In this document: in pieces, positions 1 through 8,764 of the stretch
How positions within the stretch are numbered: the stretch's first letter is position 1
How the letters are laid out: each line of letters begins with the position of its first letter
From: an uncultured Flavipsychrobacter sp.
Lineage (GTDB): Bacteria > Bacteroidota > Bacteroidia > Chitinophagales > Chitinophagaceae
DNA: 24,000 nt
NCBI GenBank assembly: GCA_964621795.1
Contig: CAZUMM010000002.1
Location: 176,773-200,772 of the forward strand
Direction: 5' to 3'
Program-made: the position numbers and the translations under genes
Notes under the pieces: generated by a model
The model's input: the letters and a program-made list of their open reading frames with translations, nothing else
What the model was told of the DNA's origin: nothing
Database searches by the model: none

Positions 1-130
1 TAACCGTATGTGTGATTTTTCTCAGGAAGGGTATGGAATATTTCTTTCCATAATGACGGGCAATTATTCCAAGACAAGCCGGGCCGCAGTCCATTGCATT
101 ATGCTGTATCAGCTTTGGGAATCCTTTCAT
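1..130 (-). CDS. Peptidase C39 domain-containing ABC transporter (double-glycine leader-cleaving RiPP/bacteriocin exporter), N-terminal fragment; continues beyond the left edge
   Basis: The reverse complement of 1-130 translates to MKGFPKLIQHNAMDCGPACLGIIARHYGKKYSIPFLRKITHTV. This is the textbook N-terminus of the C39 papain-like peptidase domain, with the catalytic Cys in the DCGPxCL motif. The ATG at 130 overlaps the SPASM gene 3' end by 32 nt. The ORF is absent from the supplied track because it is truncated by the window edge. Confidence 0.8.
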   Translation of the reverse strand, partial: MKGFPKLIQHNAMDCGPACLGIIARHYGKKYSIPFLRKITHTV

Positions 131-1205
131 GGTGATTTTCTGTAAATGCTTTATAATATTGTATTGCCTTTTGCTTCAATGGGTTTGAAGCCCAGTCGTC
201 CCATTCGCAGTTTTCGGGGTTGTACCCGCACTTTAGCGGTTGGCTGTAATCGTCGTCGGGATTGGAAAGGTAAGCCCTGCAATCAGTGCAGATATACCTG
301 AATTCGCAATCCCGGCAGTTGTTTATTTCATCTTTATTAATATCCCAGTATTTACGAAAGTCCGGAGTCGATACTACATCAGCGAGCGAAATGTTAGCAA
401 TGTTTCCAAAGCTCTGTTGCATAGAAGGGCAATTTTTTATATTACCATATTTATCAAGCGATACCTTTTTATTGAGGCAGCTATTGTGTTTTAAAGACTC
501 CGTATAATGATAAATATTGGTAGTGAAATATTTGTCGTTAACTAATCCGCAGGCGAACTCATTATCTAAACTCTTGGTAAAAAAAACAATCTTGGTAATT
601 AACCCGTCTATCACATCAGTAACAGACTGGTATGGCGCACTATGAATATATATTGACTGGATGCGACTATCTTTTGCTGCAAGCGCATGAAGCCCGGTTT
701 CTGTCCATACGGCATATTTCAGGATAAACTCAATAGACCGTATTTGTGAATGACGCATAGCAGCAAGCATAAGGTATAAGCTTTCAACGTCAACATCGTC
801 GTATGCTTTTACTTGTATAGCCTGGCAGCCTAGTTTATCAAGCTGATTGATAAATTTGATACAAGGATGAATGTCCGTGTGTTTATCAATGTCAATAATG
901 GCGTTAGATATAATACCTGGAAAATAATAGTCTAATGGCATAGGAGGAAACCTGTCTGTATCGTCAGGATGCATAAAGAATATCAAATCGTTTTCCAGCA
1001 AAAAATGAATGTATTCGTTTATGATTTCTTCAGCACCGGTGTAGGTGCTATAAATATCTTCCAGCTTGCATCCGTCAAAACGTTGCAGGATATCATACAA
1101 AGTATTTGGTATCAGGAAGTACCGGTCTCGAGTTAAATCCATTATCAATGCCCTCGCTTTTCCTTTTACAGGAATGCAATTAGCGTATAGTTTTATCAAA
1201 TTCAT
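99..1205 (-). CDS. SPASM-domain peptide maturase ('grasp-with-SPASM' type), lacking the radical-SAM CX3CX2C cluster motif
   Basis: 368-aa ORF. The C-terminal region carries C243-X10-G-X4-C259, C297-X2-C300-X5-C306-X2-C309 and C326, which is the SPASM twin auxiliary 4Fe-4S signature. The only N-terminal Cys are C10, C46, C115 and C127, and no CxxxCxxC occurs anywhere. The gene is co-operonic with an ATP-grasp gene and a GG-leader precursor. Confidence 0.85.
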   Translation of the reverse strand: MNLIKLYANCIPVKGKARALIMDLTRDRYFLIPNTLYDILQRFDGCKLEDIYSTYTGAEEIINEYIHFLLENDLIFFMHPDDTDRFPPMPLDYYFPGIISNAIIDIDKHTDIHPCIKFINQLDKLGCQAIQVKAYDDVDVESLYLMLAAMRHSQIRSIEFILKYAVWTETGLHALAAKDSRIQSIYIHSAPYQSVTDVIDGLITKIVFFTKSLDNEFACGLVNDKYFTTNIYHYTESLKHNSCLNKKVSLDKYGNIKNCPSMQQSFGNIANISLADVVSTPDFRKYWDINKDEINNCRDCEFRYICTDCRAYLSNPDDDYSQPLKCGYNPENCEWDDWASNPLKQKAIQYYKAFTENHHERIPKADTA

Positions 1206-1211
1206 GGTGCA

Positions 1212-1406
1212 TTACAGGTTTATGCTCCGGGAAATATGCTTATAAAATTCAATTGCATTTGCCGTTCGCGTATTAAATATTGCTACAGGAAAAGTTTTTG
1301 GCTTTTTGAAGTCGCCGGACGAATCTTTAATAGCATGGATTTTCCAGACTCTTGCTGTAAGCGGCAAATATTTCAGGATATCTTCAGGCAGCCGGTTGTT
1401 TTTCAT
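1212..1406 (-). CDS. Small hypothetical protein (64 aa) nested between the ATP-grasp and SPASM genes; possible accessory or recognition subunit
   Basis: The ATG at 1406 overlaps the ATP-grasp 3' end (stop at 1384-1386) by 23 nt. Its stop lies 6 nt upstream of the SPASM ATG (1205). This is a translational-coupling geometry. I recognise no domain, so the call rests on operon context only. Confidence 0.5.
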   Translation of the reverse strand: MKNNRLPEDILKYLPLTARVWKIHAIKDSSGDFKKPKTFPVAIFNTRTANAIEFYKHISRSINL

Positions 1407-2391
1407 GAGATAAGTGTGTTGCTAATAGTTTTTCAAGATAATAGTTGCAAGGTTTGGATACCTGTTCAAATTGGCCAATGGGGTTGATTTCAAAAAATAC
1501 TTCTTTCCCCGATGGAGTGACGGCCATATCAATAGACCCGCTATTCATCTTAAGCTTTCGCATAAGCCTGTCCAGTTTTAATGTTGTCTGCGGGGAAAGT
1601 TGGTAAGGTACTACGCGGTTGGGCACCTCATGATTATATCGCCTGAAATCAACCTTTGTTTTTTCATCCTGTTGGGAAAAGATGGCTGATGCATAAAAAT
1701 TTCCGTCTAAATAGAATATTCTCAGTTCATAACGTTTGTCTATGTACTCCTGGAATAATGTGGGTATAAAGCGGTCCGGAATTTCATGGAATATGTTTTC
1801 ATGAAAAATATGCGTCATGCAATCAAAAAATACCTTTTCATCTACATGCCCAAAAGCATTATGCACTGCCTTGCTGATGATTGTTTTATGTTTATGCATG
1901 AAATGCTGCAATGCCGTTCTTTCAGAAGTGATAATAGTGTCAGGTATGTCTATCCCTTCCTCCTGCGCCAGGTATATATTTTCCAGTTTATTGGTGTCAT
2001 TGTCATTAAAGCTGTTGACGTGTGACAGGGTAGATAAAAGTTTATGTAATGATTGTGTCGTATAGCTAGCTTCATTTTTTATATAAGTGTTCAGGCGGGA
2101 AAATAATTTATTGCCTTCTTCAAACACGTTGCGGAATGCATTATTGTTGCCAAATACAAACATTCCTCTCCTGTACCAGTAAATAGTATGGTGATTGATA
2201 GCAACAACCTTGTCAATAAATTCGTTCTTTATGCGAAACATGAAATTGAATCCTTCTGCCCCGATAGCATAGGTCTGAAACTCCAGTATGTCAGAATCGT
2301 TTATTCGTATAAAATCTACCTGTTCATGCAGCAGCCAGCTTATTATCTGGTTGGTACTGTGGTCGTTTTCAGTAGATAATATGATTACCAT
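1384..2391 (-). CDS. ATP-grasp ribosomal peptide maturase (graspetide / omega-ester peptide ligase family, 'grasp-with-SPASM' type)
   Basis: 335 aa. The N-terminus MVIILSTENDHSTNQIISWL is typical of RiPP ATP-grasp maturases. The C-terminal ATP-grasp fold motifs are ELRIFYLDGNFYASAIFSQ..DFRRYN and SIDMAVTPSGKEVFFEINPIGQF. The start overlaps the upstream gene stop (ATGGTAA). Confidence 0.85.
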   Translation of the reverse strand: MVIILSTENDHSTNQIISWLLHEQVDFIRINDSDILEFQTYAIGAEGFNFMFRIKNEFIDKVVAINHHTIYWYRRGMFVFGNNNAFRNVFEEGNKLFSRLNTYIKNEASYTTQSLHKLLSTLSHVNSFNDNDTNKLENIYLAQEEGIDIPDTIITSERTALQHFMHKHKTIISKAVHNAFGHVDEKVFFDCMTHIFHENIFHEIPDRFIPTLFQEYIDKRYELRIFYLDGNFYASAIFSQQDEKTKVDFRRYNHEVPNRVVPYQLSPQTTLKLDRLMRKLKMNSGSIDMAVTPSGKEVFFEINPIGQFEQVSKPCNYYLEKLLATHLSHEKQPAA

Positions 2392-3317
2392 ATTACTGTG
2401 TTTTTGTCGTATTTCGCAGGCAGGGGTACGCCATAAATTTCCGCATCAATATATAGCGGGTACATATACAGGTGCTCTCTTCTTTTATCAACCATTGATA
2501 TGGAGTCAATTTCCAGGTAATTTGGGCCGTTATATATAGTGCCGTATAGTGAATGCTTATTTTTATTCAACTGCATCTTGTCCATAAAATTCGCCAGGAA
2601 ATAATTCGATATGTTACCGTTATTCATTTGTTTGTCTAACTCGTTAAGCAATAGCTCTCTGTCAAAATAGGTGTACAGGTGGGTAAGCATGAAGTAAAAC
2701 TTTTCTGTATTGGCAAAACCAATATTGTTGATGCCCGGGAAAGGAAGTTCTTTTGTGACGATTATCTTTTTTAATATCGCAACATTGGCAGTATCGGCTT
2801 GTCCGATGATTTTGCAGGAATAGATATTGTCTTTATTAAAGAGCTCGCAAAAATTACGGGCTGCCTGGTCAAGCGAAAACATGGTATTGATAGTATTAAC
2901 CATTTTTTCATCCATGTCTTTTTGCTGCAGGTTATTCAACGAGTCGTACTGTGCCAGTAAACTGGTATATTCCGGGTCGGCCTGGTTGATATATCTTCTA
3001 AAGTTGAAAGCCATATTGCCCGGTTCTGAAAATATACCGCTTGCAATAGCCTTTCTCAGCCACTTATAGCCTTCCTGTTTTTCATTATTACGAAAGTGTA
3101 TTTTGGCTACAGTGCTGTATATCGTTGCCTGTAATTTGCCCTTATATTGTAAAGCCCTTTTGGCATACATCATGGCTGAATCGTACTGCTGCTTATGCAT
3201 ATAATACTCCATGTGATTGGAGTTGTTATAAAAAGAAGCAATGTCGGATGTATTGCTTTGCGCAAAACAACGAAATGAAAAGGTAATGGCAGTAATAAGA
3301 AAAAGAATGCGCTTCAT
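2385..3317 (-). CDS. Exported protein of unknown function (signal peptide; TPR-like N-terminal helices; uncharacterised C-terminal domain)
   Basis: 310 aa. MKRILFLITAITFSFRCFAQ is a Sec signal with the Bacteroidota-style AQ end. The helical-repeat-like segment is YYMHKQQYDSAMMYAKRALQY..EGYKWLRKAIASG. The C-terminal half resembles an uncharacterised Bacteroidota domain family (possibly DUF6624-like, from unverified memory). The stop overlaps the ATP-grasp start. Confidence 0.75.
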   Translation of the reverse strand: MKRILFLITAITFSFRCFAQSNTSDIASFYNNSNHMEYYMHKQQYDSAMMYAKRALQYKGKLQATIYSTVAKIHFRNNEKQEGYKWLRKAIASGIFSEPGNMAFNFRRYINQADPEYTSLLAQYDSLNNLQQKDMDEKMVNTINTMFSLDQAARNFCELFNKDNIYSCKIIGQADTANVAILKKIIVTKELPFPGINNIGFANTEKFYFMLTHLYTYFDRELLLNELDKQMNNGNISNYFLANFMDKMQLNKNKHSLYGTIYNGPNYLEIDSISMVDKRREHLYMYPLYIDAEIYGVPLPAKYDKNTVIW

Positions 3318-3332
3318 TGTATATATAGATTA

Positions 3333-3372
3333 GTGAAAAAGGCGTCTTCCCGTACTAACCACGGGAAGACGC
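3333..3372 (-). terminator. Rho-independent terminator/attenuator immediately downstream of the precursor gene
   Basis: A perfect 12-bp stem (3342-3353 gcgtcttcccgt / 3361-3372 acgggaagacgc) has a 7-nt loop. On the minus strand it is followed by CTTTTTCAC. It sits between the precursor stop (3386) and the next gene start (3317). Confidence 0.65.
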
Positions 3373-3385
3373 TTTGTGACTGATG

Positions 3386-3700
3386 TTATCCTTGCCAATC
3401 CCAGATTGGTGCGCTGGGAGGATTAGCCGGATCAATAACACACCAGCAAGTTCCCAGTTCAGGATCACCCGGATCGATTGGATGTGGTGGAGTGCCTGCC
3501 ATCATCTGCGTACAGGTATTAAAATCGGAGGGGTTGGCATGTCCATTGTCATACGTGGAGCACGTATCGTATGTGTCGGTTGTATTTTCAATTTCGTTTA
3601 CTGATTTAATACAGCCGCCTCCGCGTATCTGTAGCGGATTGTCAATTTGATGAGATTTAAAACCATCAAATTTGGAAGATTTTAGACTTTCAAGTTTCAT
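3386..3700 (-). CDS. RiPP precursor peptide: Bacteroidota double-glycine leader plus 75-aa acidic Thr/Ser/Cys/Pro-rich core (candidate graspetide substrate)
   Basis: The leader MKLESLKSSKFDGFKSHQIDNPLQIRGGG (29 aa) matches the MKLxxLK...I(K/R)GG leader class processed by C39 exporters. The core is CIKSVNEIENTTDTYDTCSTYDNGHANPSDFNTCTQMMAGTPPHPIDPGDPELGTCWCVIDPANPPSAPIWDWQG, with 5 Cys, 13 Ser/Thr, 11 Asp/Glu and 10 Pro. It is the first gene of the maturase operon. Confidence 0.8.
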   Translation of the reverse strand: MKLESLKSSKFDGFKSHQIDNPLQIRGGGCIKSVNEIENTTDTYDTCSTYDNGHANPSDFNTCTQMMAGTPPHPIDPGDPELGTCWCVIDPANPPSAPIWDWQG

Positions 3701-3726: not shown

Positions 3727-3859
3727 ACAAAAATTTAGGTTGATAATAGCTTACTCTTTTATACAGGTTTTCAGTTCCCCTGGGTTTATGTCAGGATAAA
3801 CCAGCCTTGAAATGCATTTCATATCAAATGTAATTAAGGCTACTGCCATTAAATGTCAG

Positions 3860-4108
3860 TTATAACAATTTCATTTCATCAACACGGATGTTCATTTCTA
3901 TTTTCACTTTTTTTGAGTAGTAGTAAGATTGTTTATTACGGCAGTAGCAGATGGGAAAGCCGGTGTCTTTTAAGTCTTCAATCAAGCGGTAAACCTGCCG
4001 TTCAGACAGCCCCAGTCTATCTGAAAGTTGTACCGGTGTGCCTGTTGAGGAGGTTCTGATAAGATAATCAAGGCGGATTAAAACGTGAATTGCTTTGAAT
4101 AGGCTCAT
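3860..4108 (-). CDS. Small HTH DNA-binding protein (HTH_11/DeoR-N-like), putative cluster regulator
   Basis: 82 aa. The winged-helix HTH segment is TGTPVQLSDRLGLSERQVYRLIEDLKDTGFPI. It lies directly upstream of, and co-oriented with, the precursor gene. Confidence 0.75.
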   Translation of the reverse strand: MSLFKAIHVLIRLDYLIRTSSTGTPVQLSDRLGLSERQVYRLIEDLKDTGFPICYCRNKQSYYYSKKVKIEMNIRVDEMKLL

Positions 4109-4170: not shown

Positions 4171-4267
4171 CAAGTAAAAAATTAACTTTTTTGTAATTGT
4201 AAAAAGTTTAATGTGTATAGAGGTCATTCTTAATAATTAAGTATGTTTATAATGGAATTTCTTTGAA

Positions 4268-6688
4268 ATGCGTTCAATACTGCTTTTTATTATATACTTC
4301 TTTTTGCCAGCAGTTTTACGGGCACAATACACCCAGCGCATACGCGGCACTGTGACTGACAAAGAATCGCACTACCCGTTAACAGGTGTTACCGTTGCTG
4401 TGACGGATGTGGCCGGGGCTGCGGGTACGGCTACCGATGAGAACGGCACCTTTGTGATAGCGGGTATTCCCGTAGGTAAACATACCATACAGGTTTCGTA
4501 TACAGGATATGAAACAGTTACTATGGGCAATGTACTGGTGACGAGCGGTAAAGAGGTGCTGTTACAAATAGAACTGGAAGAGCTAGCCCGGAAAATGGGC
4601 GAAGTGGTGGTGAGCGCGAAAAAAGAGCACATCAACGAGATGGCAGTTGTCAGTGCCAAAACCTTTGACGTGCAGGAAACGGAACGCTATGCAGGCAGCC
4701 GCTCCGACCCTGCGCGTATGGCCTCCAACTTTGCGGGTGTGCAGGGTGCCGATGATTCGCGCAATGATATTATCATCCGCGGCAATTCGCCTTCAGGGTT
4801 GTTGTGGCGGCTTGAAGATATTGATATACCGAACCCCAACCACTTTGCCATACCCGGCACCAGCGGCGGCCCTGTAAGTATGCTAAACAATAAGGTGCTG
4901 GGCAATAGCGATTTCTTTACCGGGGCGTTCCCTGCCGAGTATGGCAACTCTATAGCGGGCGCTTTCGATTTGAAGATGCGTAACGGCAATAACCAGCGGC
5001 ACGAGTACAGCGCACAGATTGGCTTCCTGGGCACAGAACTGGCAGGGGAGGGGCCGATATCGAAGAAAAACGGTTCGTCTTACCTGTTTACTTACCGTTA
5101 CTCCACGCTTAAGCTGTTTGAAAGTTTTAATTTCAAAATAGGCACCAATTCGGTACCGAACTACCAGGATGCGTCATTCAGGCTGAATTTCCCTTTTGGC
5201 AAAAAAGCCAATTTATCGTTTTTCGGCATCGGCGGGTTGAGCCATATAGATTTAATTGTGAGCAACCAGGCCGAACCGCCTACGGAACTATACGGCGAAT
5301 CAGATCGCGACCAGTATTTCACTTCCAACACGGGCGTGGTGGGAGCTTCGTTCAGCTATACCATCAACCCCAATACTTATACAAAACTCACCGTGGGGCA
5401 AACGGGTAACAACATCAATGCCCGCCATGATAAGGTGTTTCGTAATGCAGCTTACGAGGTAGACTCGCTGAAAAGCATACTGGACTATACCACCATTACC
5501 AACAGCACGGTAGCGCATTGGTACATCAATAAAAAAATATCGGCAAGGCAAACGGTGAAAGCGGGCATCATCAACAACCTGTACGAGCTGGATATGACAG
5601 ATAGCAGCCGCCAATACCCGCCTACCAAACAGATTTGGGACCACCGGCAGGATTTCAAAGGAACTACTGACCTGCTGCAGGCTTATGTACAATACAAATA
5701 CCGCCCTACCGATGCACTGACCATCACCGCGGGGCTGCACAGCCAGTACCTGACGCATAACGGCAGTACTGCCATTGAGCCACGTGCGGCTATGCGCTAC
5801 CGGCTGAGTAGTGCCGATGCTGTTAGTCTTGGCTATGGACTGCACAGCCAGATACAACCGCTGTACCAGTACTTTACTCACCTGCCGCAAAACCCGTCAA
5901 CGGCTTTGCACAATTATGATATGGGCTTTACCCGCAGCCACCATATAGTGGCAGGGTACGAGCATTTGTTTAAAGGGGTGCGCCTGCGCAGCGAAGCATA
6001 CTATCAATACCTGTTCAATGTGCCGATAGAAACACGGGCAGGCTCATCTTTCTCGCTACTGAATCAGGGCAGCAATTTCAGCCGCCTCTTCCCCGATACA
6101 TTGGTGAACAAGGGGACGGGTTATAATTATGGATTGGAACTGACGATAGAAAAGCCGTTCAGTCATGGGTATTATGTGTTGTTCACAGCTTCGGTGTTCA
6201 ACTCGAAAGCGAAGGGTAATGATGGGGTGTACCGCAATACGGATTATAACGGGCAGTTTGCTACCAACCTGCTGGCAGGCTATGAATACAAGACAGGTAA
6301 AAACACAACGCTGATATCGGGGCTGAAAATCACTTATGCGGGTGGCAAACTTTACTCCCCGCCCGATGTGGCTGCCTCGGAAGCATTGGGTGACTTTGTA
6401 GTAATTGATTCGCTGCGCAATACGTTGCGCTTTCCTGATTACTTCCGCGCCGATGTGAAGCTGGGCATCCGCATCAACCGCCCTAAAGTGACACACGAGA
6501 TAGCCCTCGACCTGGTAAATGTCTTCGGTATCAAAAACCTGCTCTCACTCACCTACAACCCCGACCTTGCAGCACAGGGTGTGGCCTATCCTTTCAACAA
6601 AAACTACCAACTGGGATTTTTGCCGCTATTTTATTACAGGGTGGATTTTGGAATTAATAGTCGAAAGTCAAAAGTCGAAAGTCGTTAG
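4268..6688 (+). CDS. TonB-dependent receptor with N-terminal carboxypeptidase-regulatory-like domain
   Basis: 806 aa. The signal peptide is MRSILLFIIYFFLPAVLRAQ. The CarboxypepD_reg-like segment is RIRGTVTDKESHYPLTGVTVAV..TDENGTFVIAGIPVGKHTIQVSYTGYE. The plug-like segment is RGNSPSGLLWRLEDIDIPNPNHF, followed by a long beta-barrel ending ..LFYYRVDF plus a 12-aa tail. Confidence 0.9.
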   Translation: MRSILLFIIYFFLPAVLRAQYTQRIRGTVTDKESHYPLTGVTVAVTDVAGAAGTATDENGTFVIAGIPVGKHTIQVSYTGYETVTMGNVLVTSGKEVLLQIELEELARKMGEVVVSAKKEHINEMAVVSAKTFDVQETERYAGSRSDPARMASNFAGVQGADDSRNDIIIRGNSPSGLLWRLEDIDIPNPNHFAIPGTSGGPVSMLNNKVLGNSDFFTGAFPAEYGNSIAGAFDLKMRNGNNQRHEYSAQIGFLGTELAGEGPISKKNGSSYLFTYRYSTLKLFESFNFKIGTNSVPNYQDASFRLNFPFGKKANLSFFGIGGLSHIDLIVSNQAEPPTELYGESDRDQYFTSNTGVVGASFSYTINPNTYTKLTVGQTGNNINARHDKVFRNAAYEVDSLKSILDYTTITNSTVAHWYINKKISARQTVKAGIINNLYELDMTDSSRQYPPTKQIWDHRQDFKGTTDLLQAYVQYKYRPTDALTITAGLHSQYLTHNGSTAIEPRAAMRYRLSSADAVSLGYGLHSQIQPLYQYFTHLPQNPSTALHNYDMGFTRSHHIVAGYEHLFKGVRLRSEAYYQYLFNVPIETRAGSSFSLLNQGSNFSRLFPDTLVNKGTGYNYGLELTIEKPFSHGYYVLFTASVFNSKAKGNDGVYRNTDYNGQFATNLLAGYEYKTGKNTTLISGLKITYAGGKLYSPPDVAASEALGDFVVIDSLRNTLRFPDYFRADVKLGIRINRPKVTHEIALDLVNVFGIKNLLSLTYNPDLAAQGVAYPFNKNYQLGFLPLFYYRVDFGINSRKSKVESR
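6659..6684 (+). repeat. Heptanucleotide tandem repeat (agtcgaa / agtcaaa / agtcgaa / agtcg) at the 3' end of the receptor gene
   Basis: Read directly from the sequence. It encodes most of the SRKSKVESR tail that follows the barrel-terminal ..RVDF. Confidence 0.6.
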
Positions 6689-6770: not shown

Positions 6771-8090
6771 ATGAAAATAGCCTTCCTAAACCTATCCATA
6801 GTACTTATATGCGGTATCAATGCGTTTGCGCAACAATCTCAAGTACCCGGCAATAGTACTGAACCCGGAAAGACCACGGCACTCGCATCACGATTAGTAG
6901 GTCACAGTATTTATGGCAACTATATTCTTCCAATACCCGGATGGGGATTATTGGACTCCACGCATTTTACCTATTCTCCCTATCATGGATATGACACAGC
7001 GGTAGGCGAATGGGAGTTTGATACAGATTCAGTAGTTGGCTATGTGGGGACACCTAGCTTTAAAGTAATAGCCCGCCAAACGCAAACCTTTGCATCTAAC
7101 AATCACATCGCCATGCAATTTCACGAGTCAGCTGACGGAGCCGGAAACTGGAGCAGTGATGAGTGGCACCGGTATACATGGAATACAGACAGCACAATGG
7201 CTGTGCATGAGTATGCAAAACATATTTCAGGTTGGGATTCTGTAAGGTTGACCTATACTTACAATACCTCCGGAAAGGCAATACTCGAATACAAGGAAGT
7301 GAAAGGAGTTAATTCGTGGAGGAATGCAGCAAAAACATTTACTACCTATAATATAGATGGCACGCAGGCGGGCACGGTACAATTAATTTGGGATGTATCT
7401 ACGTCATCCTGGGATTCGACACGCCGTGTTATCAATACCTATAATGGAGCAGGCCTATTGACTAAAAAGCTGTTCCAGTCGTATTCCGTCAATCATTGGG
7501 TAACTGACCAGGATCAGAACTATACTTATGACAGCAAAGGTAATCTTACCCAACACGAAACTCTCGATCTGTTTAATTCTTCTGCATATAAATATAATTA
7601 CACCTATGATGCTAATAATGATCTTATTTGGGAAGATAAATCCTCTTACGGTGGCATCATTAAAAATTATACGAATGAATATCGGAATATATATACTTAC
7701 AACAACTTCCACCAGGTACTGACTACGGAATATTGGGCATGGGATCTTGCAACTGCACAATATAATAAGCTTAATAACATAGATTATTATTACTATGAAT
7801 CTTATGATGACGGAGTAGTGGTAGGAGTAAAAAATATGATTGAACCGGATGTAATCGCTACACTGTTCCCTGTCCCTGCTTCCAATGAATTGCACGTAAA
7901 GCTAAATGGCAGCAGCGAAGCGGATATCATGTTATTTGACCTTCGTGGCAGGCTCGTGAAATACACAACGATTCCCAGTGGCAACACAATACAGCGCATT
8001 GATGTAAGCAATTTATCTGCTGGCACCTATATTTTTAAAGCCCTCATAAATGGCAAAACATCTGTACGCAATATAAGTCTGATAAAATAA
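6771..8090 (+). CDS. T9SS type A sorting domain-containing secreted protein with YD-repeat-like motifs
   Basis: 439 aa. The signal peptide is MKIAFLNLSIVLICGINAFAQ. Repeated YTY(D/N)xxGN-like motifs occur (NYTYDSKGNLTQ, YNYTYDANNDL, LTYTYNTSGKA). The C-terminal T9SS CTD is LFPVPASNELHVKL..MLFDLRGRLV..IDVSNLSAGTYIFKA. Confidence 0.85.
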   Translation: MKIAFLNLSIVLICGINAFAQQSQVPGNSTEPGKTTALASRLVGHSIYGNYILPIPGWGLLDSTHFTYSPYHGYDTAVGEWEFDTDSVVGYVGTPSFKVIARQTQTFASNNHIAMQFHESADGAGNWSSDEWHRYTWNTDSTMAVHEYAKHISGWDSVRLTYTYNTSGKAILEYKEVKGVNSWRNAAKTFTTYNIDGTQAGTVQLIWDVSTSSWDSTRRVINTYNGAGLLTKKLFQSYSVNHWVTDQDQNYTYDSKGNLTQHETLDLFNSSAYKYNYTYDANNDLIWEDKSSYGGIIKNYTNEYRNIYTYNNFHQVLTTEYWAWDLATAQYNKLNNIDYYYYESYDDGVVVGVKNMIEPDVIATLFPVPASNELHVKLNGSSEADIMLFDLRGRLVKYTTIPSGNTIQRIDVSNLSAGTYIFKALINGKTSVRNISLIK

Positions 8091-8212: not shown

Positions 8213-8764
8213 ATGTCGACTAAGTACAAGGTCTATAATCACCACCAGCCTCATTTTATTACCAGTACAGTTGTAGGTTGGGCAGATGTCTTAAGCAGGG
8301 AGGAGTATAAAGAAATAATACTAGATAGCCTGCGGTTTTGCCAGCAAGATAAAGGTTTATTGATACATGCATGGGTTATCATGAATAACCATATACACCT
8401 AATAGTAAGTGCGGAAGGTAATGAAGAACTTCCTGCAATCATCAGGGATTTCAAGAAATTCACCAGCAGGCACCTTATCGCTGCAATTGAAGCTCATCCA
8501 CAGGAAAGCAGGAAAGGTTGGTTGCTCAATATGTTCCGCTTTGTGGGTGGCAACAATAATAAGAATGAAACTTACCAGTTTTGGCAACAGGAATACCACC
8601 CTATAGAACTGGACACTACCGAAAAGTACAACCAACGCTTGCACTACCTGCACGAAAACCCTGTCAAGGCGGGTATTGTATGGAGTCCACCTCAGTATAA
8701 ATATAGCAGTGCTATTGATTATTACGAGCAAAATCAGGGGCTGCTTACCTTGAATATACTTTGA
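8213..8764 (+). CDS. REP-associated tyrosine transposase (RAYT) / IS200-like Y1 HUH transposase
   Basis: 183 aa. The HUH motif lies in VIMNNHIHLIVS, and the C-terminal Tyr region is SPPQYKYSSAIDYY, as in RAYT/Y1_Tnp proteins. The gene is flanked by inverted hairpin-containing repeats rather than classical IS ends. Confidence 0.85.
   Translation: MSTKYKVYNHHQPHFITSTVVGWADVLSREEYKEIILDSLRFCQQDKGLLIHAWVIMNNHIHLIVSAEGNEELPAIIRDFKKFTSRHLIAAIEAHPQESRKGWLLNMFRFVGGNNNKNETYQFWQQEYHPIELDTTEKYNQRLHYLHENPVKAGIVWSPPQYKYSSAIDYYEQNQGLLTLNIL

Follow-up and report, generated by a model that had tools for sequence, protein, structure and literature searches.

A probable grasp-with-spasm graspetide precursor with a long, nearly base-free core in a Bacteroidota-type gene cluster

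Grasp-with-spasm systems are represented in NCBIfam by TIGR04192, TIGR04193 (gwsG/gwsS), and TIGR04194. They have been described as 'Branch 5' by Makarova 2022 (PMC8939145) and as 'group 14' graspetides, which always co-occur with a SPASM protein, in the Mitchell-lab study of Carter et al. 2026 (PMC13097080). Branch 5 was reported to comprise 190 loci with hypervariable precursors, and its architecture consists of an MKKL leader, a GG motif, hypervariable cores, an LPL protein, and a 'cluster 23' protein, the cores containing a conserved pair of Thr/Ser and Asp/Glu; 8 of the 87 precursor clusters in that study matched curated precursor models (PMC8939145). These clusters are abundant in Bacteroidota (~1,700 ATP-grasp and ~4,300 SPASM homologues in our searches) and extend to mobile elements in Porphyromonas gingivalis, where gwsG/gwsS were found to be carried on ICEs (2026 preprint). 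No experimentally characterised product of any grasp-with-spasm member was found in the open-access literature.

The window, i.e., the whole stretch of 24,000 nt analysed here, contains a locus of this known system (Table 1). Seven genes are arranged on the minus strand in the order of HTH protein, precursor, 310-aa protein, ATP-grasp, LPL protein, SPASM protein, and C39-ABC exporter, with a hairpin between the precursor and the 310-aa gene. In line with the described architecture, both maturases scored above the curated equivalog cutoffs, the precursor combines an MKKL-type GG leader with a hypervariable core rich in Thr, Ser, Asp, and Cys, the small LPL protein is encoded directly 5' of the SPASM gene, and a C39-ABC exporter is present. 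An apparently secreted protein of ~300 aa occupies the slot of cluster 23 (its signal peptide was recognised by eye, and its links to DUF6624 are weak), and the surroundings are of the Bacteroidota type, with T9SS-tailed neighbour genes. The locus differs from the described members in that its precursor matches no curated model and its ATP-grasp is only 45–46% identical to the nearest homologues among the ~1,700 with E <= 1e-10. Overall, the small ORF of this operon is very likely the precursor peptide of a grasp-with-spasm graspetide cluster in a Bacteroidota-type organism; direct observations are the gene itself, the conserved double-glycine leader of 28 aa, the partner genes of the operon, and the conserved synteny. 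The initial annotation, which assigned a RiPP precursor with a double-glycine leader to an ATP-grasp/SPASM pair and a C39 exporter, is supported in this respect.

Table 1. Features in the window and their positions (counted from the first nucleotide of the window)
Feature	Position	Strand	Basis or remark
C39-peptidase ABC exporter, first 43 codons, running past the left window edge	2..130	-	translation MKGFPKLIQHNAMDCGPACL...
SPASM-domain partner (GwsS)	99..1205	-	TIGR04193, 334 bits vs cutoff 175
64-aa small protein of the 'LPL family', immediately 5' of the SPASM gene	1212..1406	-	YLPL + FYKHISR
ATP-grasp peptide maturase (GwsG)	1384..2391	-	TIGR04192, 273 bits vs cutoff 230
310-aa protein, apparent N-terminal signal peptide (by eye)	2385..3317	-	
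Intrinsic-terminator-like hairpin between the precursor and the 310-aa gene	3332..3372	-	terminator scan
Precursor gene, 104 aa + stop	3386..3700	-	ATG at 3700, stop 3386-3388
Precursor leader, aa 1-28	3617-3700	-	
Precursor core, aa 29-104	3389-3616	-	
Conserved core module, aa 42-60, DTYDTCSTYDNGHANPSDF	3521..3577	-	alignment A2
C-terminal extension, aa 64-104, Pro/Trp-rich	3389..3511	-	contains CWC
TACATTTG, match to the Bacteroidota -7 promoter consensus TAnnTTTG	3825..3832	-	regex scan
82-aa helix-turn-helix protein, candidate regulator, upstream of the precursor	3860..4108	-	PF08279 HTH_11
806-aa protein with CarboxypepD_reg domain	4268-6688		
T9SS C-terminal sorting-domain proteins (three)	6771-8090, 13688-15076, 17263-18459	+	
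REP-associated tyrosine transposase (RAYT)	8213-8764	+	NF047646, 105.6 bits vs cutoff 80
203-aa protein with C-terminal RebB 'killing trait' (R-body) domain	15669-16280	-	PF11747, E = 1.4e-8

The ORF at the annotated position is a genuine gene; it lies on the minus strand and runs from ATG to stop. An identical 104-aa ORF is encoded by three other, independent metagenome contigs, which rules out an assembly artefact. The peptide had initially been divided into a leader of 29 aa and a core of 75 aa; the GG leader was confirmed, but the boundary was not, since the conserved GG in the alignment of the relatives corresponds to G27-G28 and the homology-consistent division is 28 + 76, with the core starting at 'GC'. 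The composition given for the 75-aa core proved exact on recounting (13 S/T, 11 D/E, 5 C, 10 P, 3 W, 1 K, and 0 R), with a net charge of approximately -10. The Cys of the precursor are residues 30, 47, 63, 85, and 87. A second internal cleavage site between MMAG and T was considered and set aside as speculation, with no leader-like context upstream of it.

To place the precursor among its relatives, 80 genomic loci with ATP-grasp homologues were gathered, almost all from Bacteroidota and a few from Acidobacteriota, and all small ORFs of the collected loci were used to build a leader HMM by iteration. The genome scan with a single ATP-grasp sequence as the query returned no loci, whereas the query with an alignment did find them. 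[quoted passage not shown] The distance between precursor and ATP-grasp was bimodal (0–170 nt or about 930–1180 nt), with the window (941 nt) in the second mode, where a gene of ~300 aa lies between the two; such an intervening gene was found in many loci. An equivalent small ORF is therefore present in many homologous clusters, including L004, L085, and L087, which carry a leader-type small precursor at the same position. The first refuting condition named with the initial annotation, homologous clusters without such an ORF, thus does not apply. L004, the locus with the nearest ATP-grasp, shows the same gene order and encodes a 63-aa precursor with a similar leader.

Close orthologues of the whole precursor were not retrieved by a word-indexed search of 5.8 billion proteins, which returned only the query itself, and an exhaustive phmmer search of 1.84 billion representatives yielded only three small relatives (P0123, P0124, and P0126; E = 1e-5 to 1e-4). 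The first two of these have the gene order of the window, i.e., precursor, ~300-aa protein, ATP-grasp, ~74-aa protein, and SPASM. A scan of metagenomic DNA added five further precursors with a near-identical leader start, MKLESLKSSKF(E/D)AFK, and unrelated cores; four were complete, with cores of 50–66 aa, and the fifth ran off the contig end. The leader pattern common to the relatives is MKLESLKSSKF..FK…GG. In an alignment of the six closest precursors (A2; window, P0123, P0124, P0126, L004, and L015), the invariant leader residues were K2, L3, E4, L6, K7, S8, K10, F11, F14, K15, G27, and G28. None of the curated precursor models (TIGR04194 grasp_w_spasm_A, TIGR04149, and PF14406) matched the window precursor, nor did any other model of NCBIfam, even at E <= 10, or Pfam; most of the relatives likewise fail the curated models. 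On one contig of L015, a Chitinophagaceae MAG, two loci with MKLESLKSSKF-type precursors were observed (392-661 and 4642-4941), each ~1.1 kb upstream of an ATP-grasp gene and with unrelated cores of 61 and 71 aa.

Regarding the other operon members, the 82-aa HTH protein matched PF08279 HTH_11 just above the cutoff (E = 1.5e-5, 25.3 bits vs cutoff 25) and was called as a gene on contig L001. The candidate -7 element TACATTTG, located 124 nt upstream of the precursor ATG, is a consensus match only and constitutes weak evidence for a promoter. A hairpin in the 5'-UTR directly upstream of the ATG was not significant (z = -1.07). The terminator-like hairpin behind the precursor (3372-3342) has a 13-bp stem with 8 GC pairs followed by CTTTTTC; its folding energy was -24.7 kcal/mol (z = -5.5), and 0 of 200 shuffles were as stable. 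The 310-aa protein is 29% identical (E = 1e-37) to the equivalent L004 gene product and weakly resembles a DUF6624 protein (E = 0.012, and 0.007 for the L085 equivalent), which suggests a distantly DUF6624-like protein in the slot of Makarova's 'cluster 23'. The SPASM gene follows the ATP-grasp gene at a distance of 179 nt, separated from it by the LPL gene. The 64-aa LPL protein aligned with equivalent small ORFs of L004, L086, and L087; its exact sequence was absent from a collection of 15 billion proteins, and the source assemblies apparently lack a gene call for it. The exporter gene, which continues beyond the window on contig L091, matched PF03412 Peptidase_C39 with E = 8e-33.

Within the core, only one module of 19 residues (aa 42-60) aligned among the closest relatives, and the remainder was hypervariable. 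Its pattern is D42-[T/S/C]43-[Y/W]44-D45-T46-x47-S48 … G53 … N56 … D59-[aromatic]60, in which Asp59 is invariant (n=6), position 43 is T, S, or C, position 60 is F, Y, or W, and Asp45 and Thr46 are mostly kept. This module agrees with the Thr/Ser and Asp/Glu pair of the Branch 5 cores, and judging from the alignment it is likely the ATP-grasp crosslinking region. The proposal that the N-terminal part of the core is ester-forming was accordingly borne out as far as conservation goes, in that the only module kept in the relatives has Thr/Ser and Asp at the expected positions; the expected conservation of Thr, Asp, and Cys held for Asp59 and Thr/Ser in the alignment with the five relatives and failed for Cys47.

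What further sets the window apart from other grasp-with-spasm members is a core of unusual length with almost no basic residues and a unique tail of 41 aa rich in Pro, Trp, and Cys. At 76 aa, the core is the second longest of 50 (median 43; maximum 89 in L018/L019), and the relatives closest in the leader have cores of 50–71 aa. The term 'unusually long' applies in comparison with microviridins; among the family members, lengths are distributed continuously, and the core lies at the extreme without forming a separate class. The description 'strongly acidic' was likewise correct for the net charge (-10, tied for the most negative of the 50 cores) and not for the fraction of D/E (0.14), which is below the family median of 0.17; the near absence of K/R (fraction 0.01, close to the minimum of the 50 cores) accounts for the negative charge. 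Pro and Trp ranked fourth and fifth of the 50 cores, respectively (fractions 0.13 and 0.04).

Residues 64-104 aligned with no relative in A2, and no homologue of the tail was obtained from either the word search of 5.8 billion proteins or the phmmer search of 1.84 billion representatives, which upholds the annotation of a C-terminal part without counterpart. The possibility that the tail arose by duplication and divergence from the first module (TC…ANPSDF vs TC…ANPPS…DW) was rejected, as their local alignment did not exceed that of shuffled sequences (protein, p = 0.45; DNA, p = 0.94). We regard the five Cys and the tail of 41 residues as probable lineage-specific additions to a hypervariable core and not as conserved recognition motifs of the family.

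The SPASM partner was compared with 72 homologues. The radical-SAM motif CxxxCxxC was absent from the window protein and from all 72, a relaxed Cx(2-7)Cx2C was found in the N-terminal region of none of the 72, and the Radical_SAM Pfam model PF04055 did not match the window protein. Cys 297, 300, 306, and 326 of the SPASM domain are invariant and Cys 219, 243, 259, and 309 mostly conserved. Makarova 2022 (PMC8939145) calls this protein a radical SAM enzyme, a label that is unsupported by the 72 homologue sequences. An AF2 model built from 44 sequences (mean pLDDT 84) shows an N-terminal domain of beta3-alpha3 type (aa 1-85), followed by four to five beta/alpha units and the SPASM domain. The N-terminal domain matched the leader-bound TbiB1 RRE (5v1v; TM 0.68, rmsd 3.0) and may be the part that reads the conserved leader. 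As modelled, the protein is built like the radical-SAM/SPASM maturases of RiPPs but has lost the SAM-cluster motif. Its N-terminal part also contains two conserved lone Cys (Cys10 and Cys127). In L004, the SPASM gene (4225-5301) is split into ORFs of 45 and 288 aa, by either a frameshift or an assembly error.

Two groups of known systems are comparable to the window maturases. The microviridin and chryseoviridin systems (MdnA with MdnB/MdnC; CdnA with CdnC) share a homologous ATP-grasp ligase: the family profile matched MdnC (5ig9) at 3e-46, in addition to AMdnB, CdnC, and MdnB (E = 1e-35 to 3e-46 over 5ig9, 7m4s, 7mgv, and 5ig8). By analogy, the window ligase probably uses microviridin-type side-chain esterification on a leader-bearing precursor. 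However, the PFFARFL leader motif and the TxKxPSDx(E/D)(D/E) core of microviridins are both absent from the window precursor, the ATP-grasp scored far under the MvdC/MvdD equivalog cutoffs (TIGR04185, 120 vs 425; TIGR04184, 106 vs 475), the core is approximately five times longer, and there are additional SPASM, LPL, and secreted-protein partners. The other group is that of CteB (sactipeptides) and SuiB (streptide), which were the best whole-chain folds for the SPASM model (E about 2e-6) and with which it shares the RRE-like domain, a beta/alpha barrel segment, and the Cys-rich SPASM domain. The family differs from these enzymes in its missing CxxxCxxC, its shorter barrel, the lack of a match to any chain in a sequence-level PDB search, and the many cognate cores without Cys. 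Neither the radical-SAM motif nor a conserved core Cys (counts range from 0 to 6), as would be expected for sactipeptides or ranthipeptides, was found.

From the families involved, we infer the following maturation. The precursor would be transcribed in excess, because a strong terminator-like hairpin lies behind the gene. The leader, with its pattern MKLESLKSSKF..FK…GG, would then dock the peptide onto the maturases; it could bind to the ATP-grasp ligase, to the RRE-like domain at the N-terminus of the SPASM partner, or possibly to the LPL protein. The ATP-grasp would form side-chain esters from Thr/Ser to Asp/Glu, or amides through the single Lys; the ring would most likely lie within aa 42-60, with Thr43 or Thr46 linked to the invariant Asp59 as the best candidate. 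The SPASM partner may add a further modification. Finally, the C39-ABC exporter would cut after G27-G28 and export a very acidic, Pro/Trp-rich product of 76 residues.

The initial annotation took the Thr-Cys dipeptides for a second recognition motif and possibly the target of the SPASM partner; in such a model, the SPASM partner would crosslink the Cys through sactipeptide- or ranthipeptide-like thioethers to yield a hybrid of graspetide and thioether peptide. The statement that Thr precedes every internal Cys holds for three of the five; Cys87 comes after a Trp, and Cys30 coincides with the cleavage site or adjoins it. Three TC dipeptides are more than expected from shuffled cores (p = 0.011), the five Cys rank second of 50 cores, the SPASM partner is present with a fold closest to the thioether-forming CteB and to SuiB, and a Cys occurs 2–4 residues past the invariant Asp59 in four of the six A2 sequences (preceded by T, D, D, or W); thioethers were also speculated on by Makarova et al. 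(PMC8939145). However, the p value rises to 0.08 when the test is widened to any residue adjacent to Cys, before or after it, and the Cys47 column reads S, A, S, C, and A in the five relatives, i.e., Cys is replaced in four of them. In the 49 other non-redundant cores (L004-L090), Thr precedes 13 of 91 Cys, or 1.18x background, whereas Asp precedes 27 of 91 (2.4x). At least nine loci with a SPASM gene carry only Cys-free leader-type cores, and both precursors adjoining the closest SPASM homologue (48% identity, in L090) are Cys-free. Known Cys-thioether chemistry needs the radical-SAM cluster motif, and since the SPASM partner lacks it, classical radical formation of Cys-thioethers is unlikely. 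From these lines of evidence, Thr-Cys is not a motif of the family and Cys is not an obligate SPASM substrate; neither the separate recognition motif nor the SPASM target was retained, and we consider the thioether hybrid very unlikely. A two-part hybrid RiPP, in which the ATP-grasp would act on aa 42-60 and the SPASM partner on a C-terminal Cys/Trp/Pro module (…GTCWCVIDPANPPSAPIWDWQG), is itself quite doubtful; the SPASM protein would read the leader through its own RRE-like domain and perform a chemistry new to SPASM proteins.

The Cys might instead form disulfides after export, outside enzymatic maturation, with the tail being a passive, Pro-rich, and probably disordered segment or one that is later trimmed. 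The hypervariable number (0 to 6) and position of Cys, the export by a C39-ABC system, and the occurrence of Pro-rich C-terminal tails in other members (L045, P0124, L009, and L025) are consistent with this possibility, which we hold to be real though the less probable one, as Cys counts in the family are often odd (1, 3, or 5), the window included, and the enrichment of Asp before Cys suggests some selective constraint around Cys. For the ester-forming part, it is compatible with the graspetide reading. An unmodified GG-leader peptide resembling class II bacteriocins, or a spurious ORF beside maturase genes, would fit the missing curated family match and the word-indexed search that recovered the ORF alone. 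Such readings are largely refuted by the conserved synteny and appear extremely improbable: small ORFs with homologous leaders occupy the equivalent position beside homologous ATP-grasp/SPASM pairs in many genomes, the Thr/Asp module is common to the nearest relatives, and the operon genes are co-oriented, with the hairpin behind the precursor.

Taken alone, the window precursor is one more hypervariable core in a family known for hypervariable cores. Being large, Cys-rich, and nearly free of basic residues, it is a possible test substrate for the residues that the ATP-grasp links, and for the function of SPASM proteins that lack a radical-SAM cluster. A Bacteroidota host is indicated by the three T9SS-sorted proteins, one of which has FG-GAP repeats and another of which is Omp28-like, together with the 806-aa protein. 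Two small minus-strand ORFs without family matches (16284-16676 and 16307-16873) lie beside the RebB gene, and the RAYT gene is located ~4.5 kb from the precursor cluster.
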